A stretch of DNA of 32,000 bases, from NCBI GenBank assembly GCA_963841565.1, contig CAWJCY010000005.1, positions 1 through 32,000 on the forward strand, given 5' to 3'. This document shows positions 834 to 24,629 of the stretch, piece by piece; position 1 is the stretch's first letter; each line of letters begins with the position of its first letter. This stretch comes from an uncultured Nitrososphaerales archaeon (GTDB taxonomy: Archaea; Thermoproteota; Nitrososphaeria; Nitrososphaerales; Nitrososphaeraceae). The notes beneath the pieces were generated by a model, which did not search any database, had not been told where the DNA came from, and saw only the letters and a list, made by a program, of their open reading frames with translations. The position numbers and the translations under genes were made by a program.

Positions 834-1631
834 TCAATTATACCGAGTTTCACTGATACAGGAGTACATCCTACTCATAGATAGATAGTTATTTGGAGGT
901 GGTCGGGGATTGAACTGTTCCAAAATAACATCCGTTACCATCGCAATGATCTTCGGAATAGTTCTTGCGGCCTCAATGATTTCCTTTTGTAATGATGCAT
1001 CGGATTCAATTACCAATGAACCCTGCATAATTGTAACATTGATACCAAAAGAATTATCATACCTTTTCCATTTAAGAATTGAAACACCAGAATCATTGAT
1101 TTTTCCTACCCATCTAAGATTTTCGAACCATTTCCCTGTTAGCTTTGAGGTTATACTATCAATATCAAATTTAGTAAAATGCATATCCAAATACGCTAGT
1201 TGAGTATATTTTTTGTCCCTTTTGTAGTTATTCATTGAAGTTGAAGTTGTGTCCATGCCTAGATGTCGTCCTAATTTAGTTAATCGAAATCCATAGTGTT
1301 TGATTTGTTCAATTAGGCCCAAATCAATGAGTCTCTTAATCGATCTACTAAGGCTTTGCTGATGCATATTAAGCTCCCTTACTAATCCATTGAAAGTATA
1401 GCTTGGGTCACCATTTGCATTGCCTTTTAGAAGTAACAGAATCTTGTTATCGTTGTCGTGTAATCCATTGAATGCTGCTGAATTTATTGCAAAGGACTTG
1501 TTGCCATCAGTGCCATCAACTAACAGTGCCTGTTGACTTGGTAAGCCACCACGTGATTCAGAATAGATGTCATCTGGTAATCTAGTACCATCTCCATCAT
1601 TCTCCACTGGAATATCTGATTCGTTGGACAC
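834..1631 (-). CDS. winged-helix (MarR/ArsR-like) DNA-binding protein with uncharacterised C-terminal domain
   Basis: 265-aa ORF. The segment FNGLVRELNMHQQSLSRSIKRLIDLGLIEQIKHYGFRLTKLGRHL has the recognition-helix plus wing pattern of archaeal wHTH regulators. The N-terminus is an acidic low-complexity tail, and I recognise no motif in the remainder. Confidence 0.5.
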   Translation of the reverse strand: MSNESDIPVENDGDGTRLPDDIYSESRGGLPSQQALLVDGTDGNKSFAINSAAFNGLHDNDNKILLLLKGNANGDPSYTFNGLVRELNMHQQSLSRSIKRLIDLGLIEQIKHYGFRLTKLGRHLGMDTTSTSMNNYKRDKKYTQLAYLDMHFTKFDIDSITSKLTGKWFENLRWVGKINDSGVSILKWKRYDNSFGINVTIMQGSLVIESDASLQKEIIEAARTIPKIIAMVTDVILEQFNPRPPPNNYLSMSRMYSCISETRYN

Positions 1632-6922: not shown

Positions 6923-7423
6923 CTAAAGGTGAGCCCTTAACATCCAGGCCATCTTCTCATGGATTTCCATCAATCCGGTTAGGAAATCGTTTGTACCAAT
7001 GTCATGATACTTTGTGTCACATATTTCGAGATCTGAACGCAGACTGCGAATAATTTGTTCGTGATCCCCTAATAATTTAGAAATCATCTTGAGGTCACCT
7101 GGATACTCTCCAGGACTCTCTTTGAGTCTGGACTCCTTGACAAATTCAGTCAATGTAGCTATTGACATTCCTCCGAGTGTCCTTGTACGCTCGGCTACGT
7201 CATCAATCAATTCATCAAGTTTTTCATATTGTTCTTGAAAAAATTTATGTCTATCGTTAAAATGAGATCCTGTCACATTCCAATGATAATTTCTTGTTTT
7301 AGTATACAAGATATACTCGTCTGCAAGTAATGTGTTTAGAATCTTGACAACACCTTCTCTATTATGTTGAGAAATTCCTATATTCAAGTCACTCTTTGTC
7401 TTTTCAAGCGTTCTTAATGTCAT
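6923..7423 (-). CDS. dps: Dps family DNA-protection / mini-ferritin protein
   Basis: 166 aa. LNTLLADEYILYTKTRNYHWNVTGSHFNDRHKFFQEQYEKLDELIDDVAERTRTLGG matches the Dps ferroxidase-centre helices (HW...H...D..E). Confidence 0.9.
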   Translation of the reverse strand: MTLRTLEKTKSDLNIGISQHNREGVVKILNTLLADEYILYTKTRNYHWNVTGSHFNDRHKFFQEQYEKLDELIDDVAERTRTLGGMSIATLTEFVKESRLKESPGEYPGDLKMISKLLGDHEQIIRSLRSDLEICDTKYHDIGTNDFLTGLMEIHEKMAWMLRAHL

Positions 7424-8153: not shown

Positions 8154-8618
8154 GTGGGCTCACTAATGGATAAATTTTCAGAATCCCGAAGCAATAGTTT
8201 ACGGAATCGAGGGGTCACGAAATTGCTATTGGTCAATAATGATTTTGAACCTGCGATGAGCTTGAAGAAAGGTTTAGAGGATTATGGCTTCAAAGTTTAT
8301 TATTTTGCGAATGTACTCGCAGCACTCCACGATATTGAGAAAAGCAAAAAGGTCAATTACGATATGATATTATTTGACATCAATCCATCTAATACTGAAT
8401 ATTTACTCTTTGCCAAACAAATTAGGGAATTGAGCCACACCGTGAAGATGTTTCTTATGAGTTCGCGTGAAATTGAAGACAAGGTTATACGTAACGCTAT
8501 GACGGCAGGTATTAATGAGATAATAATGAAACCAATTTCAGCCGAAAACCTCAACATAGTGTTACAAGACTACATCGATGGAATCAACAATCCACTAGAT
8601 TCAGCACTTAAACTTTGA
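8154..8618 (+). CDS. single-domain response regulator (CheY-like receiver)
   Basis: 154 aa. It has a beta1 acidic site (LLLVNNDFE), a phospho-acceptor Asp context (DMILFDINPS), a Ser/Thr position (FLMSSRE) and a conserved Lys (IIMKPIS). There is no output domain and no kinase in the window. The start is GTG at 8154, with an alternative ATG at 8166. Confidence 0.75.
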   Translation: MGSLMDKFSESRSNSLRNRGVTKLLLVNNDFEPAMSLKKGLEDYGFKVYYFANVLAALHDIEKSKKVNYDMILFDINPSNTEYLLFAKQIRELSHTVKMFLMSSREIEDKVIRNAMTAGINEIIMKPISAENLNIVLQDYIDGINNPLDSALKL

Positions 8619-9459: not shown

Positions 9460-9476
9460 CGTTCTTGCAGACGAAG

Positions 9477-10703
9477 ATGAAATCTGAATTCGCATTAATA
9501 TTATCGGCGATACTAGTTTTAGGTGGATTGGTACCTGGACTTACTTTGGGTTCACAGATAGCTTTTGCAGACGACGCTAGTGGCGGCGGTGAAAGTAGCG
9601 GCGGTGAAAGTAGCGGCGGTGAAAGTAGCGGCGGTGAAAGTAGCGGCGGTGAAAGTAGCGGCGGTGAAAGTAGCGGCGGTGAAAGTAGCGGCGGTGAAAG
9701 TAGCGGCGGTGAAAGTAGCGGCGGTGAAAGTAGCGGCGGTGAAAGTAGCGGCGGTGAAAGTAGCGGCGGTGAAAGTAGCGGCGGTGAAAGTAGCGGCGGT
9801 GAAAGTAGCATTAGTAGTAGCAGCGGCGATGGTGGCAGCACTGGCAGCACTTTACAAAGTAGTAGTACGAACTTTAGGGGCAGCGCTAGCAGCAGCGCTT
9901 TCGGTCTTCCTCCTCCAGGCGGCAGTAACGAAGATTTTGACTGGAAGTATGGCGATCCTGACTGGAAGTATGGCGATCCTGACTGGAAGTATGACGATCA
10001 TGACTGGAAGGACAAGGGTCATGATGACAAACACAAGGACAAGGGTCATGATGACAAACACAAGGACAAGGGTCATGATGACAAACACAAGGACAAGGGT
10101 CATGATGACAAACACAAGGACAAGGGTCATGACAAGGATTGCAAGGACAAGCGTCATGACAAGGATTGCAAGGACAAGCGTCATGACAAGGATAAGAATA
10201 AGCACCATGACAAGGATCATAAGAAAGATCACAATGGCGACGACAACAATAGTCATCATAACAACAATCATGACAAGAATTGCGACTATGACAAGAATGG
10301 CGACTATGAAAAGAATGGCGGCTATGACAAGGATGGAGACTATTGCGAATGCGACTACGACAAGGATGGCGACTACGACAAGGATGGCGACTACGACAAA
10401 TATGGTGACTATTGCGGTGATGGCGACCACAATGGCGACAACAATGGCGACCACAATGGCGACAACAATGGCGACCACAATGGCGACCACAACGGTGACG
10501 GTTCGGAAGCAGCTGCAGTAACGACAGCTAGCGGTACTGCATCATCATCTTCAGTTGCAGCTGGCGGTGTGGTAATTCAGGATGCGACTATTGGCAACGG
10601 AGCAGCATCAGCAGCAACTGACGGCATAGGAATAACACCAACGGGAATAACACCAACAGGAATAACACCTGCAAACGGCGGTTTAGCAGGAGCATTGTCC
10701 TAA
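9477..10703 (+). CDS. secreted, intrinsically repetitive Gly/Ser/Asp/His/Lys-rich protein (six tandem-repeat modules)
   Basis: The ATG at 9477 gives MKSEFALILSAILVLGGLVPGLTLGSQIAFA|DD, a Sec-type signal peptide with an AxA site. All repeat units are multiples of 3 nt (15, 21, 27, 18, 12/24 and 15) and stay in one frame. The tracked ORF begins at an upstream TTG at 9465. Confidence 0.7.
   Translation: MKSEFALILSAILVLGGLVPGLTLGSQIAFADDASGGGESSGGESSGGESSGGESSGGESSGGESSGGESSGGESSGGESSGGESSGGESSGGESSGGESSGGESSGGESSISSSSGDGGSTGSTLQSSSTNFRGSASSSAFGLPPPGGSNEDFDWKYGDPDWKYGDPDWKYDDHDWKDKGHDDKHKDKGHDDKHKDKGHDDKHKDKGHDDKHKDKGHDKDCKDKRHDKDCKDKRHDKDKNKHHDKDHKKDHNGDDNNSHHNNNHDKNCDYDKNGDYEKNGGYDKDGDYCECDYDKDGDYDKDGDYDKYGDYCGDGDHNGDNNGDHNGDNNGDHNGDHNGDGSEAAAVTTASGTASSSSVAAGGVVIQDATIGNGAASAATDGIGITPTGITPTGITPANGGLAGALS
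9585..9809 (+). repeat. 15 perfect tandem copies of a 15-bp unit (ggcggtgaaagtagc, encoding GGESS)
   Basis: Read directly from the sequence. Lines 9601, 9661 and 9721 are identical, and 225 nt / 15 = 15 units with no substitutions. Confidence 0.97.
9939..10001 (+). repeat. 21-bp tandem repeat x3 (DWKYGDP / DWKYDDH)
   Basis: gactggaagtatggcgatcct occurs twice, followed by gactggaagtatgacgatcat. Confidence 0.9.
10008..10196 (+). repeat. 27-bp tandem repeat x7 (4 perfect KDKGHDDKH units, then KDKGHDKDC, KDKRHDKDC and KDKRHDKDK variants)
   Basis: aaggacaagggtcatgatgacaaacac is repeated perfectly 4 times from 10008, followed by three diverged units. Confidence 0.9.
10272..10412 (+). repeat. degenerate 18-bp repeats encoding D-K-[DN]-G-D-Y
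   Basis: DKNCDYDKNGDYEKNGGYDKDGDYCECDYDKDGDYDKDGDYDKYGDY. The unit gacaaggatggcgactac recurs with variants. Confidence 0.8.
10419..10502 (+). repeat. 12/24-bp repeats encoding GDHNGDNN
   Basis: aatggcgaccacaatggcgacaac is repeated, giving the peptide GDGDHNGDNNGDHNGDNNGDHNGDHNGDG. Confidence 0.85.
10629..10673 (+). repeat. 15-bp tandem repeat x3 (GITPT, GITPT, GITPA)
   Basis: ggaataacaccaacg / ggaataacaccaaca / ggaataacacctgca lie near the C-terminus. Confidence 0.85.
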
Positions 10704-15968: not shown

Positions 15969-17138
15969 GTGCCATATATGCCAAATAAGGTTTGCGTCCT
16001 CGGTGCAGGTAGTACGAAATATGGTAAGCTAAATGAAAGTGTTGTAGAATTAGCGTTGGATGCCTCAAAGGATGCTATCACTTCTGCCGGTATAACCCCA
16101 AAGGAGATACAGTCAGGCTACATTTCAAATGTCTTTGGAGTTTCTGACAAGCAGGTTCATATGGCACCTGTTATAATGAGCAACTTAGGCATTCCTTATA
16201 CTCCAGGCCTAACCATAGAATCAGCATGTGGATCTGGCTCTGTAATGTTACGAGAAGCATATGCTAATGTTGCTGCAGGTTTTTATGACTGTATTTTGGC
16301 GGTAGGTGTTGAGAAAATCACTCAGGTAGGAACAGTTCAGAGTACTACACTTTTTTCATATTGTTCAGATTTCTTTTATGAGGGAGGAAATGGAGCTTCT
16401 TTTCCCGGGCTTTTCGCATCTATCGCGAGGGCTTATCTTACTAGGTACAAAGCAACAGAAGAAGATTTAGCTTATGTGGCGGTCAAGAATCATGAGAATG
16501 GAATACTTAACCCCAAAGCACATGTTCGTAAAATAATAACGATCGAAGATGTGATGCAATCTCCTGTCGTGGCATCTCCGCTAAAACTTTACGATTGTTG
16601 TCCATTCTCCGATGGCGCCTCCGCACTGATTCTTTGTAGCGAAGAATTTGCGAAGAAAAAGGGCAGAAGCTATATAGAAATAATTGGATCAGGCCGTGGT
16701 GCCTCCCCAGCCGCAGTACAATCGCGCGAGGACATTACAACTATACCCAGTACCGTAAATGCTGCCCGACAGGCGTATGAAATGGCAAAGATAACACCCA
16801 AAGATGTAGATTTTGCTGAAGTACATGATTGCTTTACCATTGCCGAAGTCATAGATACTGAGGACTTAGGCTTTTTTAGGAAAGGCGAAGCTGCAGAAGC
16901 CATAAGGTCTGGCGCCACAAAGAGGACAGGAGAGATTCCAATTAATCCATCAGGAGGATTAAAATCTAAAGGTCATCCGATCGGAGCTACAGGGATTGGT
17001 CAAGTTGTTGAAGTATTTGAACAATTTACAGGGAAGGCAGGAGAGCGAACAATACACGACGCAGAAATCGCAATTACCCATAACTTTGGTGCCACTGGGG
17101 CAAGTGCGACAGTACACGTTTTCAAGAAAGTTAAATGA
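15969..17138 (+). CDS. archaeal thiolase (acetyl-CoA C-acetyltransferase / acetoacetyl-CoA thiolase)
   Basis: 389 aa. It has the active-site Cys context IESACGSGS, then EVHDCFT, then NPSGGLKSKGHPIGATG and the C-terminal NFGATGAS. The start is GTG at 15969, with an alternative ATG at 15978. Confidence 0.9.
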   Translation: MPYMPNKVCVLGAGSTKYGKLNESVVELALDASKDAITSAGITPKEIQSGYISNVFGVSDKQVHMAPVIMSNLGIPYTPGLTIESACGSGSVMLREAYANVAAGFYDCILAVGVEKITQVGTVQSTTLFSYCSDFFYEGGNGASFPGLFASIARAYLTRYKATEEDLAYVAVKNHENGILNPKAHVRKIITIEDVMQSPVVASPLKLYDCCPFSDGASALILCSEEFAKKKGRSYIEIIGSGRGASPAAVQSREDITTIPSTVNAARQAYEMAKITPKDVDFAEVHDCFTIAEVIDTEDLGFFRKGEAAEAIRSGATKRTGEIPINPSGGLKSKGHPIGATGIGQVVEVFEQFTGKAGERTIHDAEIAITHNFGATGASATVHVFKKVK

Positions 17139-17144
17139 ACTAAT

Positions 17145-17543
17145 TTGTCTGACTCTAGGGATCCAAATCAAGTCATGAACAGGAGAAACAGGTTCATAGA
17201 AGCAGCTAGTCGTGGAAAGATTCTGGCAAATAAATGTGCAAAATGCAATTATTCCACTCTTGAAACAGCATATTTCTGTGAAAAGTGCTCGTCCGATGTA
17301 TTTACTACAGAGGAATACGACGGGCTGGGCAATGTGGTTACATTCACAATTCAATCTGTTGCCCCAGAGGGATTTACTGATGCGGGCTTATATGCATGGG
17401 TCGTTTTTAAAGTTGATGGCGCCCCTTTCAATGTGTCTGGATTTCTTAAGGATACTCATGCGCCATCAGATTTACCAATCGGTTCAAAAGTGCAAGTGAC
17501 TGGTTTTGACGAGAAACATGGGTTGCTTTTAAAGCGTGTTTGA
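17145..17543 (+). CDS. DUF35 family Zn-ribbon/OB-fold protein (thiolase partner)
   Basis: 132 aa. A CAKC...CEKC rubredoxin-like zinc ribbon is followed by an OB-fold-like beta-rich segment. The gene starts 6 nt after the thiolase stop, which is the typical archaeal pairing. Confidence 0.85.
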   Translation: MSDSRDPNQVMNRRNRFIEAASRGKILANKCAKCNYSTLETAYFCEKCSSDVFTTEEYDGLGNVVTFTIQSVAPEGFTDAGLYAWVVFKVDGAPFNVSGFLKDTHAPSDLPIGSKVQVTGFDEKHGLLLKRV

Positions 17544-17720: not shown

Positions 17721-18362
17721 ATGTATTTGCGACAGATGGAACAGCATCGTCAGCGATTCAGTGGAGAGATTACAAACGCAAGTGCAGTTGTAAATACCCA
17801 ACTTTCTAAACTGACTATGCTGGAGAAAAAATTCTCGAACATGGATGATAAATTCAGCAATGAAATTTCCAATCTTATGAAGAATGGTAACAACGCGCGG
17901 GCAAAAGCACTTGCAAACGAACTCGTGAACATTCGACGAATAAAGAATATTACTCGAAACATGAACCTTACACTAGAGATGCTAGTAATCAGGTTTAGCA
18001 CTCTCAAAGATTTTGGGATGATTATGGATACTATTGAACCTACAGTAGATATGATAAAGAATATTCAGCTTGATATATCAGCCATCGTGCCTGCCGCAAA
18101 CGGAGTACTCTCCGAAATGTCTGAGATTTCATCTGAGGTTCTAGATGAAAGCACGAAGATAGACGGAAACTATGCAATCCCAACTAGTGTAGATTCCGAT
18201 GCACTGGATATCCTAACAGAAATCGAGTCAGTAATGGAACAGGATGCTAAAACAAAATTACCTGAAATACCTACAGAGATAAACGAAACAATAATCCAAT
18301 CAACCGATAATATTAAGATGAGGAGCTTATTGAAGGAAAGTCGGGTACTTGTCGAAACTTGA
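17721..18362 (+). CDS. cdvB: ESCRT-III / Snf7-family cell-division protein (CdvB paralogue)
   Basis: 213 aa and all-helical. ARAKALANELVNIRRIKNITRNMNLTLEMLVIRFSTLKDFGMIMDTIEPTVDMIKNIQLDISAIVPAANGVLSEMSEI follows the CdvB/Snf7 core pattern. The acidic C-terminus carries a Pro-containing KLPEIPTEI. Confidence 0.7.
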   Translation: MYLRQMEQHRQRFSGEITNASAVVNTQLSKLTMLEKKFSNMDDKFSNEISNLMKNGNNARAKALANELVNIRRIKNITRNMNLTLEMLVIRFSTLKDFGMIMDTIEPTVDMIKNIQLDISAIVPAANGVLSEMSEISSEVLDESTKIDGNYAIPTSVDSDALDILTEIESVMEQDAKTKLPEIPTEINETIIQSTDNIKMRSLLKESRVLVET

Positions 18363-18456
18363 ATAAATAGCAGAAGCTAAGGTAGGCCATATTATATCGA
18401 TAGTAAAATATAATTTACAAAGTAGTTTTAATTGTCTAGGCTGAATATCGGGTGCA

Positions 18457-20574
18457 ATGGAACAGTTGAGTCATGATTATTCATTTCAAACAGAGAACAA
18501 AAGGTATGGGATTCTCGAATCTGCCTCAAAACGAGTGCGGATGATCTTCTCTGTTATGGCCAGTCCTAACAGAATTGATATACTTAGAATATTAAATTCA
18601 AAGGGGCCACTTACCTACTCTGAATTGAAATCTCTTGCCGGGTTCAAATCGAAAAAGGAATCTGGAAAATTTGCCTATCATTTAAGGAAACTGCTTAGGC
18701 AGTCGTTAGTTGCTTTGAATAAAGGAGAACGAAGATATACAATAACTAACTTGGGGAAATTAGTCTTGAGCCTTGCAAGACAAATTGAAGAAAGGTCAAT
18801 AGTTGAAAGTGGCAAAATGTATGTTAGGACAAGCCATAATTCGATTGAGGAGTTTAATTCTCACAAGATAATCCAATCTATCGTTAGGGAGGCTGGAATG
18901 CCTTTAGAGCAAGCGCAGAAAATCACGGAGGAAGTGGAGAACAAGATTTACAAGTTCCAGGCTGCCTATCTTACATCTTCTCTGGTTCGTGAAACAGTCA
19001 ATTCCGTGCTTATAGAGCATGGCTTTGAAGAGTATCGGAGTAGAATGTCCAGATTGGGCATGCCTAGTTCTGATGTTCTCGATCTGATAAACAATGCGGA
19101 AGGAATTACAAATGGAATAGAGGGAATTATCAATAACGCTTCCATGTCAGTGTTTTCGGAGCACCTATTATTGAATTCTCTACCCAAGGACATTTCAGAT
19201 ATGCATCTAGGTGGCGAGTTAAACATCTCAAATCCTGGGGTATGGGGGATACTTCCTGATGTGGTCTTCCTAAACATCAATGAATTTTCTGAAGGATTAC
19301 AAAAATTAAACGGCAAGTATTTTAACGTATCAAGGGTACGCTTCGATGAAAAGTCCAAGTTTTCGGCAGCATTGCAATTACTTTTGGCTTTGATGAGCAG
19401 GGAGGCATCATCGGAGGTAGTTCTTGAAGGCATCACAGACTTTCTCTTGAATGACACTTTGGATTGTGAGGATATCGCGTCATCTTTTGCAAAGGCTCTT
19501 ATCTCGTCATCTGCTACAAGCTCCTATTCTGAAGGTCTACCTTCCTTTACGATTCTATTGCCTGTAAGTACTCTTGATAAAAAGACATTTGGGGCCTTAC
19601 TTGATGGCTACACAAAGTATACAGACTTAACTCCTTTACCAAGGGTTGGTCTGGCATTAAATTACAATGGAGATTCCAATACGTTGGGAGAAGACTCGCA
19701 GACGATATCATCTGTAGTTAGGTCGGGAGGTAAGATAGTCATCATGCAAAATGGAAAGCGAACGAGTAATGGCATTCGAAAATCATTAGATGGTAAGGAT
19801 ACAGGGAGCGTTGCATCTTTACAGTCGATGTCGATTAATCTTCCTAGACTCGCGTATCAGTCAAACAAAGATGAAACATATTTCAGGGCAAAACTCGCGC
19901 TAACAATAAAACCCGCATTGGAGGCGATGTATATAAGAAAGAAGAATATCCTGAGCACAATCAGAAAGGGGCTATGCCCGGTCATGGGAAGTGCTAATTT
20001 TGAACATTTCGGCACAACTAACATAATTCTCAATCTCACCGGCCTAAAGGAATCAGTATATGATATCTTGGGATATAATCACAATTCTGCCGGAGATGAT
20101 GTCCTGAGAAAAGTACTGAAGACCTCAGGTGATGTAGCTTTAGATCATGGGAGGCAAATGGATAGTGAATCGGTAGGTATCTCGATGATAGATGATGACA
20201 GTAGCATAAGATTTTCAACCTTGGATTCAGAAAAATATGGTAGGACTCTACTATCAACTGGGGCCGAGTCGGCAAAGCACTACTCTCAAGGGATTACTGT
20301 GAACGGAAAGGAACTTTTGTTACAACCTCAAAAAGGATTAGAAGAATGTATTTCCATTGATAGTCTCCTAAGGGGTGGGTTGTCGACGTCAATAGATCTA
20401 ACTGATATTTCGGCTCAGGATGAATTGAATAAGGCAATAGCCATCAGCACTGGACTCACATTCTTCCGGCCATTCGTTCGATCCCTGATCTGTAGAGGGT
20501 GTAGCAGACGCTATGTTGGGTCAGATGTTAAGAAATGCGAGACCTGTGGATCAGTATATTTAAGGACAGGTTGA
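18457..20574 (+). CDS. wHTH (ArsR-like) + ATP-cone + degenerate NrdD-like (class III RNR-like) + C-terminal Zn-ribbon fusion protein
   Basis: 705 aa. Residues 25-110 (ASPNRIDILRILNSKGPLTYSELKSLAG...FAYHLRKLLRQSLV...YTITNLG) are ArsR-type wHTH. Residues 121-197 (MYVRTSHNSIEEFNSHKIIQSIVREAGMPLEQAQKITEEVENKIY...LTSSLVRETVNSVLIEHGFEEYRSR) have the ATP-cone pattern. The body carries NrdD-like stretches LPKDISDMHLGGELNISNPG, SMSINLPRLAYQ and NLTGLKESVYDILG. The C-terminus is CRGC-x11-CETC, and the protein ends 8 residues later with no RxxGY glycyl-radical motif. Confidence 0.65.
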   Translation: MEQLSHDYSFQTENKRYGILESASKRVRMIFSVMASPNRIDILRILNSKGPLTYSELKSLAGFKSKKESGKFAYHLRKLLRQSLVALNKGERRYTITNLGKLVLSLARQIEERSIVESGKMYVRTSHNSIEEFNSHKIIQSIVREAGMPLEQAQKITEEVENKIYKFQAAYLTSSLVRETVNSVLIEHGFEEYRSRMSRLGMPSSDVLDLINNAEGITNGIEGIINNASMSVFSEHLLLNSLPKDISDMHLGGELNISNPGVWGILPDVVFLNINEFSEGLQKLNGKYFNVSRVRFDEKSKFSAALQLLLALMSREASSEVVLEGITDFLLNDTLDCEDIASSFAKALISSSATSSYSEGLPSFTILLPVSTLDKKTFGALLDGYTKYTDLTPLPRVGLALNYNGDSNTLGEDSQTISSVVRSGGKIVIMQNGKRTSNGIRKSLDGKDTGSVASLQSMSINLPRLAYQSNKDETYFRAKLALTIKPALEAMYIRKKNILSTIRKGLCPVMGSANFEHFGTTNIILNLTGLKESVYDILGYNHNSAGDDVLRKVLKTSGDVALDHGRQMDSESVGISMIDDDSSIRFSTLDSEKYGRTLLSTGAESAKHYSQGITVNGKELLLQPQKGLEECISIDSLLRGGLSTSIDLTDISAQDELNKAIAISTGLTFFRPFVRSLICRGCSRRYVGSDVKKCETCGSVYLRTG

Positions 20575-21025: not shown

Positions 21026-21589
21026 TTATGGGATTGATCTGCTGTACAGCTTTCCTTCTAATGCTAGTTTGTACATCTCTGCTACGTACGGGTTCTTGGC
21101 TGGTGTTTCAGCTCCAAGTTCAACCAATCGTGCATATACTCTTACGACATATGCTAGAGCGCCCATGAAAGCTACAACAACTCCCATGTTAAACATCCAG
21201 TGGTTTGGAACTGAAAATATTTCTTCTACAAACCAAAAGTGCCACAGCTCATTGATACCTATAGTAAACATGGTTGCCAAATATCCAAGAATGGTCATCT
21301 TTAGACCGGTATTCATGGAGTTGTTTGGTCCTCTTAGAATAGGTACTTTTCTGTCATACATTGCTACAAATCCCCAACCTAGAGGAAGTGCAATGAAGTG
21401 ACTGTATAGCCACCAATGAGCTGGTGTGAATGCACTATCTCTGATAGCAGTTTGATGCAATGATCCATCTACAAAGTTATCTACTTCTACTGATGCTGCA
21501 ATTGAACCTAACATTATAACCATTATGTATATTTTCTTTAGTCTCTGTATCTCTACTTCTTTTGGAATCAGTGCGGGCATCTGTGCCAT
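21026..21589 (-). CDS. amoC: ammonia monooxygenase subunit C (archaeal AmoC), solitary copy
   Basis: MAQMPALIPKEVEIQRLKKIY...VEVDNFVDGSLHQTAIRDSAFTPAHWWLYSHF...RGPNNSMNTGLKMTILGYLATMFTIGINELWHFWFVEEIF...RVYARLVELGAETPAKNPYVAEMYKLALEGKLYSRSIP is essentially the conserved thaumarchaeal AmoC sequence as I remember it. The tracked ORF extends 4 codons upstream to a TTG at 21601. Confidence 0.93.
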   Translation of the reverse strand: MAQMPALIPKEVEIQRLKKIYIMVIMLGSIAASVEVDNFVDGSLHQTAIRDSAFTPAHWWLYSHFIALPLGWGFVAMYDRKVPILRGPNNSMNTGLKMTILGYLATMFTIGINELWHFWFVEEIFSVPNHWMFNMGVVVAFMGALAYVVRVYARLVELGAETPAKNPYVAEMYKLALEGKLYSRSIP

Positions 21590-21621
21590 TATCTTCTTCA
21601 ATAATGAAGATGCAACAGATC

Positions 21622-21629: not shown

Positions 21630-21864
21630 GTTGCGAGTATCAGAATCTGATTCTTTCATCAATGTTTGATAGTGAATTGGATGATATCTTATGGAATGTA
21701 TATATAATTATGTTATTTATATGATTTATCATACCTGAATGTAGATAAGCATTAGTGATTAGCACAAGTGATTAATGTAATGTGTGGCTATTTTTGGATA
21801 CCTTAAACACTAATTTGTGTTCGAAGAGCGAAGGGCCCATCCATGGCACAATTTTTCAGCAAGC

Positions 21865-21877
21865 TAATATTTTTAAA
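21865..21877 (+). promoter_or_regulatory. TATA-like box for nrdJ
   Basis: taatatttttaaa is centred about 35 nt upstream of the ATG at 21906. Confidence 0.3.
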
Positions 21878-21905
21878 GCAAAGGAAAACTAATGTATAGA
21901 TTGGA

Positions 21906-24629
21906 ATGGCGGGGGTTACCGAATTTAATTCTAAAGAAAATTTGATTTCACAGATAAGGAAACGGGATGCAAGAATAGTTTCTTTTGTTCATACGAAGAT
22001 CTCCAATGCAATCTATAAGGCGTTGGTTGCAACTAGGAAACCTGATTACGAGTTAGCTGAGAACTTGGCTAACAAAGTTCTCCAGAAAATGGTTGATCAT
22101 GGCTATGGAGCGTCGGAAAAGGAAGCAATTCCGAGTGTGGAAGACGTTCAGGATATGGTAGAATCAATACTCATCGAAGAAGGTTTGTCCGAGACAGCAA
22201 AGGCCTACATCCTCTACAGACACGAACGAAGAAAAATTAGAGATGAAAAAATGAAAATCCTGAACAAGAAAGATCTAGATGAAATCGATAAATCATTCAG
22301 TGTTAATTCACTAAGAGTCTTAGCGTCTCGATATCTGTTAAGAGATGATAGCAACGAGATAATAGAAGGACCACGCCAAATGTTTGAAAGGGTTGCCATT
22401 CTAGCAACTCTGCCTGACCTGGTACACGATTCGAGTATATTTGACATCGAATCTAAACATAGTAATTACACAGATGAAGCAGAGAAGTACTACGATAAAA
22501 TCGATGATTTCCATCTCAAGCTTAAGATTGGTGAATTCTATCTCAATAAGTACCATTTTGAATCTCTTATTCGTCTTTACATAGATCTCGCTAAAGACAG
22601 ACACATGAAATGTAGTTTCAAAGACTTGCTAAGGCTAATCGCTGAAGGAAAGATGTCTGCTTACGAAAGCAGAATTCGCGAATACTATAATTTAATGGTA
22701 TCAAAGGACTTTTTGCCTAATACACCAACTTTAATGAACGCGGGCGCGAGATTAGGACAACTTTCAGCCTGCTTTGTCCTCGACATGCCAGATGATATGA
22801 ACCAGATCATGAAGTCGTCTACCGATGCGGCGATGATCTTCAAATCAGGAGGCGGAGTAGGCATCAATTATTCTGATTTGAGGCCAGAGGGTGATATCGT
22901 AGCATCCACATCTGGAGTAGCATCTGGACCTTCATCTTTCATGAGAATAATTGACACAATCACGGATGTTGTGAAACAGGGAGGAAAGAGACGTGGTGCA
23001 AATATGGGTATTCTGGAAGCATGGCATCCGGATATTGAAAAGTTCGTGACTGCAAAGACAAAACCGGGAGTATTTGAAAACTTTAATGTGAGCGTTGGTA
23101 TCTCTAATGATTTCTGGAAATCTGTTATTGATAAACAGAACCATAAGTACATGTTAAGAAATCCGAGAACCCAAGAGCCCATTAAAAACATTGATTCGCA
23201 ACAGCTATTGGATCTGATAGCATTTAGTGCATGGAAGAGTGCAGAACCAGGTGTAATTTTCTTTGATAATATCAACAAATATAATCCATGTATGGAAGCC
23301 AAGGGTGGACCATTGCGTGCAACAAATCCTTGTGGAGAACAGTCTCTTTATCCATATGAATCATGCAATTTGGGTTCGATAAATCTGGCAAATTTTGTTA
23401 AGAGGAAAGCTGATGGAATGTACGAATTTGATTGGCAACGTTATGAACAAGCGGTACGATTGTCAACCAGATTGCTAGATAATGTAATTGATGCTAACAA
23501 GTATCCTGTAGACGAGATCGATAAAAATACTAAACTTACGCGTAGAATCGGTCTCGGTATTATGGGCATAGCCGACCTACTATTCTTGTTAAGAATACCA
23601 TACATATCTAAAGAAGGGTATGAGTTCATGAACAAGTTAGCGGAGGCGATCTCATATTACAGCATGGAGGAGAGCGTTGCTCTGGCTAAAGTACGAGGGC
23701 CATTTCCACTGTTTTCAAGAACTGATTATGTCAAAGGTAAGATCCCGGTAGCCGGATACTATGAAATACCGAAGGAGAATCATTCATTTGACTGGGACTC
23801 ATTAATCATGAAAATCCGAAAATACGGTATAAGAAACTCATGGACAACAACGATTGCACCTACTGGAACGTTATCTATGATAGCAGATACTTCTAACGGT
23901 ATTGAACCCATTTTCGCTTTAGTTTTCGAAAAGAGAGTAACAGTTGGCAGATTTTTCTATACAAACAGGGTTTTCGAAAATGTTCTAATGGCGAGCGGTC
24001 TGTACGACGACGAAATACTTACAAGAATTGCAAATAACTACGGATCTGTACGAGATATGAATGAGATTCCTCAGTGGATGCAGAAACTTTTCGTAACAGC
24101 AATTGATATTCACTGGACAGATCATCTTATGGCTCAGGCTGTGTGGCAGAAATGGATTAGTAATGCTATCGCAAAGACTATTAATATGCCTGGAGATACG
24201 ACCGCCGATGATGTGAAATCTGCATACTTGCTTGCCCATGAATTAGGATTAAAAGGTGTTACAGTTTATCGGGATGGGTCAAGACACGAGCAGGTTCTGC
24301 ACATAACAGGTGATACTGGAAAGGAAAAAAGGTTTATGGTAAATCCGAGTGCCTACGTAGCAGATTTTATTCGAGACAATATCAATGAACCATTCGTAAG
24401 GGAACAGATAGCACAAATATACCAATACACTCAGAATTTTGAGGAACCCATGACACCTCCTCGTTATGAAGAGAATCAACAGATTACTTCTGTAAAAAAA
24501 TCAAGTCTCCAATCTTCAGTTATGGAGAATTATGACAATATGTGTCCTTCCTGCAAATCAAAACTAATAGTTACAGAAGGATGTAATATGTGCATTGAGT
24601 GTGGGTTTAGTAGCTGCGGCTCGGGATGA
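21906..24629 (+). CDS. nrdJ: adenosylcobalamin-dependent (class II) ribonucleotide reductase with N-terminal ATP-cone and C-terminal Cys-rich zinc finger
   Basis: 907 aa. The ATP-cone is IRKRDARIVSFVHTKISNAIYKAL...VEDVQDMVESILIEEGLSETAKAYILYRHERR. The catalytic finger loop is TNPCGEQSLYPYESCNLGSINL, followed by TIAPTGTLS and GVTVYRDGSR. The C-terminus is CPSC...CNMCIECGFSSCG. Confidence 0.95.
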   Translation: MAGVTEFNSKENLISQIRKRDARIVSFVHTKISNAIYKALVATRKPDYELAENLANKVLQKMVDHGYGASEKEAIPSVEDVQDMVESILIEEGLSETAKAYILYRHERRKIRDEKMKILNKKDLDEIDKSFSVNSLRVLASRYLLRDDSNEIIEGPRQMFERVAILATLPDLVHDSSIFDIESKHSNYTDEAEKYYDKIDDFHLKLKIGEFYLNKYHFESLIRLYIDLAKDRHMKCSFKDLLRLIAEGKMSAYESRIREYYNLMVSKDFLPNTPTLMNAGARLGQLSACFVLDMPDDMNQIMKSSTDAAMIFKSGGGVGINYSDLRPEGDIVASTSGVASGPSSFMRIIDTITDVVKQGGKRRGANMGILEAWHPDIEKFVTAKTKPGVFENFNVSVGISNDFWKSVIDKQNHKYMLRNPRTQEPIKNIDSQQLLDLIAFSAWKSAEPGVIFFDNINKYNPCMEAKGGPLRATNPCGEQSLYPYESCNLGSINLANFVKRKADGMYEFDWQRYEQAVRLSTRLLDNVIDANKYPVDEIDKNTKLTRRIGLGIMGIADLLFLLRIPYISKEGYEFMNKLAEAISYYSMEESVALAKVRGPFPLFSRTDYVKGKIPVAGYYEIPKENHSFDWDSLIMKIRKYGIRNSWTTTIAPTGTLSMIADTSNGIEPIFALVFEKRVTVGRFFYTNRVFENVLMASGLYDDEILTRIANNYGSVRDMNEIPQWMQKLFVTAIDIHWTDHLMAQAVWQKWISNAIAKTINMPGDTTADDVKSAYLLAHELGLKGVTVYRDGSRHEQVLHITGDTGKEKRFMVNPSAYVADFIRDNINEPFVREQIAQIYQYTQNFEEPMTPPRYEENQQITSVKKSSLQSSVMENYDNMCPSCKSKLIVTEGCNMCIECGFSSCGSG

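Follow-up and report, generated by a model that had tools for sequence, protein, structure and literature searches.

A winged helix-turn-helix, ATP-cone and catalytically dead NrdD-fold fusion protein as a candidate nucleotide-sensing regulator in archaea

Analysis of a 32-kb stretch of archaeal DNA (the window) showed a gene whose product has lost the catalytic residues of a class III RNR and gained a DNA-binding domain. The most likely role of this product is therefore that of a switch which senses nucleotides and acts on genes for DNA precursors, and no regulator of this kind has so far been described in archaea. The interpretation preferred here, which is probable rather than firm, is that the gene encodes a nucleotide-responsive transcription factor made from a pseudoenzyme, analogous to NrdR and probably controlling nrdJ, with binding of DNA and of nucleotides inferred. 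An exapted pseudoenzyme regulator had been proposed in a sequence-only reading of the same DNA; the parts of that proposal that could be tested on the sequence held, while DNA and nucleotide binding are still inferred. No published description of a family with a fused winged helix-turn-helix (wHTH), ATP-cone and NrdD-like body was found in the literature searched, which agrees with the earlier remark that no characterised example was known. What is new here is the archaea-wide family, the decayed Bathyarchaeial tails beside genuine nrdD, the nrdJ adjacency in AOA and the conservation of the cone and wHTH.

RNR is the gatekeeper for the supply of DNA precursors. The control of its transcription is essentially unknown in most archaea because NrdR is rare there (PMC9110341), and the niche of an RNR regulator is therefore open. 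The family is a concrete candidate for an archaeal RNR regulator and is found in cultivable ammonia oxidisers and Asgard archaea. If the interpretation is true, the family would clearly exemplify an enzyme paralogue recycled as a regulator of its own pathway, with intermediate stages of decay in living lineages. The features of the locus are shown in Table 1.

Table 1 Coordinates of the putative regulator gene, its domains and its surroundings in the window
Feature	Position	Strand	Basis or remark
Whole ORF, 705 aa, complete	18457..20574	+	wHTH + ATP-cone + catalytically dead NrdD-fold body + zinc ribbon
wHTH, aa 30-104	18544..18768	+	HTH_20 and DUF7347 above gathering thresholds; AF2 topology
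ATP-cone, aa 121-194	18817..19038	+	Pfam PF03477, 42.6 vs cutoff 25.8, E 9e-11; VRTS start replaces VxKRDG
NrdD-fold barrel body, aa about 200-670	19054..20466	+	Foldseek vs PDB; Pfam NRDD 433-699; least conserved part
Degenerate finger loop G439-I440-R441	19771..19779	+	Aligns with thiyl-radical G-C-R (E. coli, PhiF1, Vibrio-phage, Bathyarchaeial NrdD)
Retained NrdD signature INLPRLA, aa 460-466	19834..19854	+	N461, L462, P463 and R464 conserved in at least 90% across the family
NrdD-type zinc ribbon C679, C682, C694, C697 (CxxC-x11-CxxC)	20491..20547	+	Read from sequence
8-residue tail GSVYLRTG + stop codon	20548..20574	+	Genuine NrdD runs on into RxxGY glycyl-radical domain here
cdvB (Snf7/ESCRT-III) paralogue, directly upstream, co-oriented	17721..18362	+	Pfam Snf7
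Invariant 77-nt region upstream of regulator	18380..18456	+	Probably promoter + 5' leader; candidate autoregulatory site (no binding data)
Orphan amoC copy between regulator and nrdJ	21026..21601	-	Pfam AmoC; clade-specific, not part of system
Conserved repeat CATTAGTGATTAGCACAAGTGATTAATG upstream of nrdJ	21750..21777	+	Candidate operator, lead only: no statistics, no binding data
nrdJ core promoter + leader: TTTTCAGCAAGCTAATA, TATA-like TTTTTAAA, leader about 28 nt	21853..21905	+	Invariant in close relatives
nrdJ, B12-dependent class II RNR with own canonical ATP-cone	21906..24629	+	Pfam, NCBIfam; probable regulatory target (no binding data)

Domain architecture and comparison with NrdR

The ORF picked out from the sequence alone was recovered in the ORF listing with exactly the same coordinates, strand and length, and its three-domain architecture proved real by Pfam (matches judged against gathering thresholds), by an AlphaFold2 (AF2) model of the 705-aa protein (pLDDT 84, pTM 0.74) and by Foldseek. 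The N-terminal domain matched Pfam HTH_20 (residues 34-86, 32.5 bits against a cutoff of 27) and DUF7347 (residues 30-104, 40.2 against 27.6), and its topology in the AF2 model (a1-a2-a3-a4-b-b-a5, pLDDT 85-95) qualified as a winged helix-turn-helix fold. The predicted recognition helix was KKESGKFAYHLRKLLR (aa 66-81), residues R39, G70, Y74 and H75 were invariant in the family, and the pattern [ED][SA]G[KR]F[AVG]YHL[RK] from the conserved wHTH stretch was used for the genome scan. The ArsR-type DNA-binding domain named earlier stood only in part: the domain is a wHTH of an ArsR-like clan, but the ArsR-specific models failed (Pfam HTH_5, 11.9 against 22; NCBIfam HTH_metalloreg NF033788, 23 against 55). 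The a1-a5 topology, the HLRxL recognition-helix signature and an HTH_20 match above cutoff were shared with ArsR/SmtB-clan regulators that carry fused sensor domains, from which the window protein differed in failing these two models and in having an ATP-cone and a dead enzyme as its sensor, not a metal site.

The second domain was an ATP-cone, as had been suggested, and passed the Pfam gathering threshold. In alignment, the residues with which NrdR of S. coelicolor contacts the nucleotide, E56, F58 and K62 (PMC9110341), had their equivalents in E131, F133 and K137 of the cone, while K50 of NrdR corresponded to T125. The canonical phosphate-binding K-R-D was replaced by T-S-H, immediately preceded by a conserved R124, within the start VRTSHNS (123-129). 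Since mutation of the Lys in NrdR that is equivalent to the one missing here abolished function (PMC9110341), nucleotide binding by the cone may, as far as the alignment can tell, be altered or lost, though the variant also occurs in the genuine parent NrdD. Decay of the cone specific to the regulator was rejected as the origin of VRTS because the cone of genuine Bathyarchaeial NrdD begins in the same way.

As in NrdR, an ATP-cone (PF03477, E 9e-11) is joined to a DNA-binding module and coded beside RNR genes; in Streptomyces, NrdR is encoded beside the RNR in an nrdR-nrdJ arrangement (PMC9110341). The proposed logic, nucleotide-dependent control of RNR transcription, is also that of NrdR (PMC9110341). 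Unlike NrdR, the window protein has an N-terminal wHTH in place of a Zn-ribbon with an RRRR motif, its sole zinc ribbon being C-terminal and of the NrdD type, and it has a 500-aa dead NrdD body, a cone without the canonical K-R pair and a family distributed in archaea (TACK and Asgard). Homology between the two is confined to the cone, and the earlier statement that they are structurally unrelated was wrong since both have it.

The third part of the protein matched Pfam NRDD (PF13597) over residues 433-699, corresponding to profile positions 255-529 of 562 (44 bits against a cutoff of 26.2, E 1.6e-11). The AlphaFold and Foldseek check that had been recommended returned only class III RNR structures from the PDB at ranks 1-31 (probability 1.0, 550-730 aligned columns, TM up to 0.66) and identified the ten-stranded barrel fold of NrdD, and because no other structures appeared at these ranks the whole body from residue 200 to 705 is, on the predicted model, NrdD-fold, beyond the half detected by Pfam. 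Two stretches reported earlier were present and homologous to NrdD motifs, namely INLPRLA, which aligned with VNLPRIA of solved NrdDs, and the H-x-G-x-IHIHD-like stretch HLGGELNISNPG at 250-261, where genuine NrdD carries ADAHMSGEIHVHE. Residues D248, H250 and G253 of the retained DAHxxG motif were invariant in the family. The zinc ribbon was also as described (C679-x2-C682-x11-C694-x2-C697, then 8 residues and the stop); its four Cys aligned with E. coli C644, C647, C662 and C665 and were kept in 101-104 of 128 family members.

Genomic neighbourhood and candidate regulatory elements

The nrdJ gene, placed 1.3 kb away in the sequence-only reading, was located 1.33 kb downstream of the regulator gene. 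Of 64 AOA loci that could be evaluated for synteny, 57 had nrdJ as the gene right after the regulator, namely all 24 from Nitrosopumilales (median gap 214 nt) and 33 of the 40 from Nitrososphaerales (median gap 274 nt), and the sampled exceptions were due to IS insertion or rearrangement. Among Nitrososphaerales, 44 of 45 loci had the cdvB paralogue upstream, against none of 25 among Nitrosopumilales, so that of the two syntenic partners suggested for checking, nrdJ was upheld in AOA at large and cdvB in Nitrososphaerales only; a cdvB link across all AOA was rejected. In the window itself, amoC separates the regulator from nrdJ, which counts against the regulator model there; this insertion was found only in the close relatives of the window (loci L005, L006, L173 and L174).

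Outside the RNR genes, a thiolase-DUF35 block lay upstream of the regulator in AOA as well as in Lokiarchaeia and Methanomethylicota, where the regulator followed it. On the other side, pyrB(-)/pyrI came after the regulator in Bathyarchaeia, Odinarchaeia and Baldrarchaeia; in a set of 89 Bathyarchaeial and Asgard loci, 52 had this pair beside the gene. In 7 loci, purL, purF and purM stood upstream of the regulator. None of 4 Asgard and Methanomethylicota loci sharing the flanking blocks had an adjoining RNR, and some of the neighbourhood is ancient gene order that is also seen where no RNR is present. Synteny is therefore weaker evidence than it appears, and its use as strong proof of nrdJ as the target was downgraded.

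These neighbours could also belong to a broader regulator of nucleotide metabolism or growth coupling, not specific for RNR, that controls pyrimidine/purine, cdvB or mevalonate-pathway genes and for which nrdJ is one target or incidental. The pyrB(-)/pyrI, pur, cdvB and thiolase-DUF35 placements all speak for such a protein, but pyrB is convergent with the regulator and has no common promoter with it, Nitrosopumilales are without cdvB at that position, thiolase-DUF35 has no evident nucleotide link, and only an RNR, in two lineages and with two RNR classes, lies directly downstream in the same orientation and has a function related to the ancestry of the protein. A broader role was thus considered unlikely, though it has to be kept in view.

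The 77-nt region upstream of the regulator was essentially identical in 7 loci (proteins 84-92% identical) and contained the palindrome TATCGATA (18395-18402), while the stretch just past the cdvB stop varied; Rfam showed no known structured RNA in the invariant leaders. Upstream of nrdJ, the repeat CATTAGTGATTAGCACAAGTGATTAATG was kept among 3 close relatives while its flanks diverged, and the layout of the nrdJ promoter recurred across Nitrososphaerales. The motif TATGA-N3-TCATA occurred 18 times in the 316 kb of loci from Nitrosopumilaceae, each time 94-124 nt upstream of nrdJ. A gapped-palindrome scan and k-mer enrichment showed strong clade-specific elements and no operator motif common to all clades, despite a conserved recognition helix; the overlap of k-mers between clades (CAAGATC, TGTCAAT) was marginal (3 non-TATA overlaps against about 1 by chance), and a universal operator was rejected on account of this near-chance overlap. 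No NrdR-box-like operator was identified in the regulator-to-RNR spacers, only conserved spacer elements without binding data. Scans for bacterial-type promoters and terminators gave background levels and are not applicable to archaea.

The failure to find a cross-clade operator is compatible with a protein that does not bind DNA and works by contacting other proteins. It might, for instance, sense nucleotides as a partner of NrdJ or NrdD, inhibit one of them or be a scaffold, and the wHTH would then be a protein-interaction module. RNRs are controlled via ATP-cone-driven oligomerisation, and pairing of the NrdD-like body with subunits of an RNR is conceivable, which would suit this alternative; it was nevertheless judged improbable, as the wHTH is the second most conserved module and carries the ArsR-clan recognition-helix signature HLRxL, pairing with NrdJ, an RNR of a different class, would be unexpected, and in many lineages no RNR adjoins the gene.

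Conservation and loss of catalytic residues

The columns conserved in at least 90% of the family were counted as 24 of 74 in the ATP-cone, 14 of 75 in the wHTH and 18 of 425 in the NrdD body, so that the cone ranked first, the wHTH second and the body lowest. This is the pattern expected of a sensor transcription factor, insofar as conservation alone can indicate function. The barrel residues at this level were D248, H250, G253, N461-R464, G529-E532, R585, D590, Y609 and G641; the finger loop varied across the family, and a sister clade had a Cys one residue past the thiyl position (NG[TA]CKS). This small conserved set and the displaced Cys are what could be cited for a barrel that kept or gained a non-radical nucleotide activity (binding, hydrolysis or transfer), in which case the protein would be a "trigger enzyme" with two functions, more than a pseudoenzyme alone. 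With the barrel as the least conserved part and a variable finger loop, such an activity was regarded as very improbable, and to our knowledge the NrdD fold has no chemistry without its radical relay.

Loss of the radical apparatus was observed at all the catalytic positions for which an alignment had been advised. The G439-I440-R441 of the window protein stood at the place of E. coli NrdD G383-C384-R385, leaving no thiyl-radical Cys and bearing out the reported lack of a Cys finger loop, and the second catalytic Cys (E. coli C175, N-C motif) was missing as well. The RxxGY loop noted as missing turned out to be part of a larger absence, the whole C-terminal glycyl-radical domain being absent from a protein that stops 8 aa after the zinc ribbon. 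This truncation was conserved across the AOA clade. Restoration of the domain by readthrough or frameshift was rejected, there being no such coding potential after the stop and the end point being conserved.

The same was seen in the family, in which the C175 column had no Cys in 128 of 128 members (deleted or replaced), the thiyl column had a Cys in 2 of 128 (neither with RxxGY) and an RxxGY-like string was present in 4 of 128 (none with the thiyl Cys). No audited member contained a complete radical apparatus, whereas the genuine NrdD controls had both catalytic Cys and RxxGY. No nrdG-like activase gene was found in the window, as reported before, where ThiC was the sole radical-SAM protein. 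The NCBIfam NrdD equivalog TIGR02487 gave 39.3 bits against a cutoff of 326, and scores with the curated NrdD model were about one-tenth of cutoffs.

Compared with class III RNR NrdD (e.g. PDB 4COI, 8P23, 9D3X and 1H78), the protein has the same fold over the whole body, the same order of ATP-cone, barrel and zinc ribbon, and the motifs DAHxxG, INLPR and CxxC...CxxC, but it is without the glycyl-radical domain and both catalytic Cys and has an additional wHTH. Because these three elements are absent, the protein is a class III RNR homologue that, on its sequence, cannot itself be such an enzyme. A genuine oxygen-sensitive class III RNR, as which NCBI and JGI annotate many members, was rejected as virtually impossible and refuted by the sequence of the window protein, since the NRDD match above threshold, the NrdD fold, the retained zinc ribbon and INLPR motif and the database name "anaerobic ribonucleoside-triphosphate reductase" cannot offset the missing catalytic residues and glycyl-radical domain, the unmet cutoffs of the curated model, a window without an activase gene and hosts that are aerobic ammonia oxidisers with nrdJ next door. 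The public annotation "anaerobic RNR" is wrong, and thousands of database entries with this name can mislead metabolic reconstructions of aerobic nitrifiers and uncultured archaea.

Distribution, origin and proposed mode of action

The family was found in all ammonia oxidisers sampled, in Bathyarchaeia, in Methanomethylicota and in several Asgard lineages, and is far older and wider than Nitrososphaeria. Longer Bathyarchaeial forms retained a decayed glycyl tail, matched the full-length NRDD profile (E 1e-55 to 1e-75) and were closest to genuine Bathyarchaeial NrdD (31% identity, E 5e-73; 23-25% to E. coli and phage NrdD), with which they had in common the unusual VRTS cone and the cone-barrel linker RLGMPVYDV. 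By sequence comparison, the window protein is a direct paralogue of archaeal NrdD. In a Bathyarchaeial subclade (8 of 80 metagenome loci), the regulator lay about 270-310 bp upstream of genuine nrdD and co-oriented with it; as genuine nrdD is both the closest relative and the adjoining gene, this points to a tandem duplicate, and the adjacency may simply be a relic of the duplication. The adjacency of nrdJ (57 of 64 AOA loci) and of nrdD (Bathyarchaeial subclade) and the conservation of the cone and wHTH strengthened the regulator reading.

In the proposed course of events, an ancestral archaeal class III RNR gene nrdD, ATP-cone included, would have been duplicated, and one copy would have gained an N-terminal wHTH and lost all radical chemistry. 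The NrdD-fold body would serve as a dimeric scaffold and the (d)NTP pool would be read by the ATP-cone, possibly also by leftover nucleotide sites in the barrel, with nucleotide-dependent changes of conformation or oligomeric state gating the binding of the wHTH to promoter DNA. The most likely direct target in AOA would be the nrdJ immediately downstream, possibly along with the regulator's own promoter. The protein would thus do what NrdR does in bacteria, with a different set of parts. The analysis showed the architecture, the fold, the missing catalytic residues, the paralogy to genuine archaeal NrdD, the distribution of the family, the synteny and how conservation is spread over the domains, whereas the binding of DNA and nucleotides, the identity of the target genes and the choice between positive and negative regulation are all inferred.

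A wider hypothesis, which is tentative, is that ancient transcription factors from a dead class III RNR (TACK and Asgard) are the missing archaeal counterpart of NrdR; these would read nucleotides via the ATP-cone and allosteric sites inherited in the NrdD barrel, and set the transcription of RNR, acting on nrdD in anaerobes and on nrdJ in the aerobic ammonia oxidisers. They might also couple the supply of dNTPs to growth and, with cdvB, to cell division. An RNR subunit that lost its activity and took an unrelated regulatory role has a precedent in the catalytically inactive RNR large-subunit homologues of herpesviruses (e.g. MCMV M45). Unlike the window protein, these are viral, derive from class I R1 with an added RHIM motif, and act on host cell-death signalling, not on transcription. 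In the archaeal family, RNRs of two different classes (nrdJ and nrdD) adjoined the regulator, in two lineages.

Domain architecture and loss of catalytic residues

The ORF of the putative regulator lay exactly where the sequence-only reading had placed it, and all motifs quoted in that reading were recovered (Table). Pfam returned four matches exceeding the gathering thresholds; the ATP-cone and NRDD models were among them, bearing out the proposed relationship to both. The DNA-binding domain had been called ArsR-type: the wHTH falls within the ArsR-like clan, and the ArsR-specific models were not passed. The NCBIfam NrdD equivalog models reached about one-tenth of their cutoffs (e.g., 39 bits vs 326). 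A family alignment of 30 sequences gave a confident AlphaFold2 model (mean pLDDT 84, pTM 0.74). Foldseek against the PDB placed class III RNR structures (S. thermophilus, T. maritima, P. copri, and phage T4) at ranks 1-31, all at probability 1.0 over 550-730 aligned columns, with an identity of 10-15% and a TM of at most 0.66; class I R1 proteins first appeared at rank 32. Since ranks 1-31 were all class III RNRs, the NrdD fold spans the entire body of the model, from about residue 200 to 705.

Table. Features of the window and of comparison loci
Feature	Position	Strand	Remarks
Regulator ORF	18457-20574	+	705 aa
HTH_20	residues 34-86		Pfam, above gathering threshold
DUF7347	residues 30-104		Pfam, above gathering threshold
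ATP-cone	residues 121-194		Pfam, E 9e-11
NRDD (PF13597)	residues 433-699		Pfam, E 1.6e-11; profile positions 255-529 of 562 only
VRTSHNS	residues 123-129		regulator motif
HLGGELNISNPG	residues 250-261		regulator motif
INLPRLA	residues 460-466		regulator motif
CxxC-x11-CxxC	C679-x2-C682-x11-C694-x2-C697		C-terminus; then 8 residues and stop
Thiolase-DUF35	15969-17543		co-oriented, directly 5' of regulator
Thiolase-DUF35	L168, 4334-5913		co-oriented, directly 5' of regulator
Thiolase-DUF35	L170, 1835-3399		co-oriented, directly 5' of regulator
Block 5' of regulator	18380-18456		77 nt, with TATCGATA
amoC copy	21026-21601	-	stand-alone, 191 aa
TGATTA repeat	21750-21777		
Block before nrdJ	21853-21905		final 53 nt
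NrdJ C-terminal tail	24540-24629		
DDE transposase (DDE_Tnp_4)	L018, 8229-9152		directly after regulator; Nitrososphaerales locus, nrdJ adjacency lost
Long form, pyrB, pyrI, atpF	L086, 12723-14418		pyrB convergent
Split nrdJ	L173, 8411-11135		two ORFs, 606 + 273 aa
MarR-like wHTH protein	834-1631	-	
Ferritin/Dps-like protein	6923-7423	-	
Response-regulator receiver domain	8154-8618	+	stand-alone
412-aa ORF	9465-10703	+	weak TrAA12-like match only

The window protein and its relatives were aligned with the NrdDs of E. coli (L001), a Methanobacterium virus (L002), and a Vibrio phage (L003), and with a genuine Bathyarchaeial NrdD (L086), an alignment that had been suggested as a check for intact radical residues. 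The thiyl-radical G-C-R of genuine NrdDs corresponded to G439-I440-R441, the N-C cysteine position (E. coli C175) was deleted, and nothing aligned with the RxxGY glycyl-radical domain. Both catalytic cysteines and the glycyl domain are absent, in agreement with the finger-loop Cys motif and RxxGY loop having been reported missing. No nrdG-like gene was found within the 32-kb window, in line with the earlier remark that no activase was nearby. Across 128 family members, none carried Cys at the C175 column; 2 (P0183 and P0185, both without RxxGY) had it at the thiyl column, and 4 had an RxxGY-like string, all without the thiyl Cys. The zinc-ribbon cysteines were retained in 101-104 of the 128. 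As far as sequence can tell, the window protein is homologous to NrdD yet fails every catalytic criterion and cannot be a working NrdD; there is virtually no doubt that it is no RNR.

Two members of the Nitrososphaera/Nitrosopolaris clade (P0050 and P0056, sharing about 62% identity with the window protein) had a degenerate finger loop, NG[TA]CKS, with Cys one residue past the thiyl position (NGIRKS in the window protein). This Cys, whose conservation was not examined, is probably not functional because both proteins also lack the glycyl domain.

Family distribution, origin and conservation

Close homologues numbered in the thousands and were named inconsistently between sources, as 'anaerobic RNR' or 'ArsR regulator'. 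An exhaustive search of cluster representatives gave 148 clusters at E<1e-30, with identity down to about 27%. A genome scan found the family on at least 597 contigs, the best 80 of which were all from ammonia-oxidising archaea (AOA) of both orders (Nitrososphaera, Nitrosopolaris, Nitrosopumilus, Nitrosarchaeum, and Nitrosotalea). Distant members (long forms, 740-770 aa) had the same wHTH and cone, matched the full NRDD profile (E 1e-55 to 1e-75), and kept a tail beyond the zinc ribbon with a decayed glycyl motif, e.g., RSSATY. Source names assigned them to Bathyarchaeia, Brockarchaeota, Methanomethylicota/Verstraetearchaeota, and Asgard lineages (Odin-, Loki-/Prometh-, Hel-, Baldr-, Njord-, and Jordarchaeia).

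In one Bathyarchaeial subclade, a second, co-oriented NRDD gene lay about 270-310 bp downstream of the long form and was intact (C175-position Cys, SQCCRI finger loop, zinc ribbon, and SRITGYYQRVKGWNAGKR). The regulator barrel was nearest to genuine Bathyarchaeial NrdD (31% identity, E 5e-73; bacterial and phage NrdDs 23-25%), and both had the unusual cone start VRTS as well as RLG[ML]PVYDV as the linker between cone and barrel. The simplest history would be a tandem duplication of nrdD in which one copy gained a wHTH and lost its radical residues, the whole glycyl domain being lost later in the AOA lineage; the nrdD adjacency in Bathyarchaeia could be a relic of duplication.

Among 30 diverse family members, columns conserved at ≥90% made up 24 of 74 in the ATP-cone, 14 of 75 in the wHTH (including the recognition-helix stretch SGKFAYHLR), and 18 of 425 in the NrdD body, a pattern that would be expected under selection on DNA binding and cone-mediated sensing with the barrel mainly a scaffold. 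Cone residues K50, E56, F58, and K62 have been reported as important in S. coelicolor NrdR (PMC9110341). Mapped onto that cone, the regulator kept E131, F133, and K137, and had T125 at the K50 equivalent, immediately preceded by a conserved R124. Because the genuine NrdD parent carries the same variant, the T125/VRTS cone is read as a lineage trait and not decay; ATP/dATP binding is untested.

Genomic neighbourhood and putative cis-elements

The window gene order was thiolase, DUF35, cdvB, regulator, amoC (-), nrdJ, and cdc48 (-). The suggested synteny with nrdJ stood: among loci that could be evaluated, it was the next gene after the regulator at 24/24 in Nitrosopumilales, where it was co-oriented and the median gap was 214 nt, and at 33/40 in Nitrososphaerales, with a median gap of 274 nt. 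Where this adjacency was missing, the sampled loci had either a DDE transposase or unrelated genes after the regulator. Synteny with cdvB, located 5' of the regulator, applied to Nitrososphaerales (44 of 45 loci) and not to Nitrosopumilales (0 of 25). With nrdJ in AOA and nrdD in a Bathyarchaeial subclade, the regulator thus immediately precedes an RNR gene in two lineages and with two RNR classes, as expected of a local RNR regulator; old gene order tempers this evidence.

The amoC copy between the regulator and nrdJ matched AmoC profile positions 87-243 only and is a clade-specific insertion found in the closest relatives alone (L005, L006, L173, and L174); at other AOA loci nrdJ directly follows the regulator, apart from the Nitrososphaerales exceptions noted above.

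Thiolase-DUF35 followed by the regulator also occurred in Lokiarchaeia and Methanomethylicota, and the regulator followed by pyrB(-)/pyrI at most Bathyarchaeial loci and in Odin- and Baldrarchaeia; RNR lay beside the regulator at 0/4 of those Asgard and Methanomethylicota loci. In part, the neighbourhood thus reflects conserved gene order of great age; the thiolase-DUF35-regulator order is extremely old with no evident functional reason. This upstream order, a mevalonate-pathway acetoacetyl-CoA thiolase with its OB/zinc-ribbon partner, was common to AOA, one Lokiarchaeon, and one Methanomethylicota archaeon. Bathy-, Odin-, and Baldrarchaeial loci (L084-L167, L169, and L171) had the long form, convergent pyrB, then pyrI and atpF, with purL, purF, and purM upstream at 7 loci.

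The long-form neighbourhood gives a nucleotide-biosynthesis theme wider than RNR. The main rival explanation, a broader nucleotide or growth regulator, is considered unlikely. The favoured reading, held with moderate confidence, is a transcription factor that responds to nucleotides and acts on nrdJ in these organisms.

TATGA-N3-TCATA occurred 18 times in 316 kb of Nitrosopumilaceae loci, each time 94-124 nt upstream of nrdJ, and the exact TATGAA-N-TTCATA was present in 15 of 26 spacers (maximum for any palindrome in shuffles, 6). Bathyarchaeial regulator-nrdD spacers had CAAGATCTTGTCAATTGA and TACAGAATTGTCTAAAACTTATAT in common. In the window's clade, the block 5' of the regulator was essentially invariant at 7 loci, and the block before nrdJ and the TGATTA repeat were conserved at the 3 loci covering the nrdJ upstream region. 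The search gave no motif shared by every clade, between-clade overlap being near chance expectation, and Rfam gave no match on the conserved upstream regions. These elements are leads and do not show binding. The Nitrosopumilaceae regulator-nrdJ spacers (L056-L083) also had several CGATCA/GATC-containing blocks about 20 nt apart, plus the 13-bp palindrome; CGATCAT occurred in 16 of 26 vs a 0.7% background in same-loci windows, a statistic inflated by shared ancestry.

Relation to known systems and other genes

Like NrdR, the regulator bears an ATP-cone, lies beside RNR genes, and is proposed to work in the same way. However, its DNA-binding module is a wHTH where that of NrdR is a Zn-ribbon, and a dead enzyme of 500 aa is attached, so it is not a member of the NrdR family; by analogy, it is rated as a recycled enzyme that follows an NrdR-like logic. 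Dead RNR subunits have been put to new uses in herpesviruses (M45), but these are of class I origin and in a different setting. NrdR has been described as rare in archaea (PMC9110341). A full-text literature search found no published account of the wHTH, ATP-cone, and dead NrdD architecture, matching the statement that no characterised example was known, and the interpretation as an exapted dead-NrdD regulator is supported as far as computation goes. Its great age, wide distribution, systematic misannotation, and direct testability make the family of high interest.

The MarR-like, ferritin/Dps-like, receiver-domain, and 412-aa ORF genes appear unconnected to the regulator finding. Besides the split nrdJ of L173, tblastn coverage of nrdJ was partial downstream of the regulator at several Nitrososphaera loci (L023, L025, and L033); both patterns could stem from frameshifts, from errors in assembly, or from intein-like insertions. 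The NrdJ of the window had its own Cys-rich, zinc-ribbon-like tail (CPSCKSKLIVTEGCNMCIECGFSSCG), with a weak, sub-threshold match to the Thaumarchaeal output domain TackOD1 (E 0.05).
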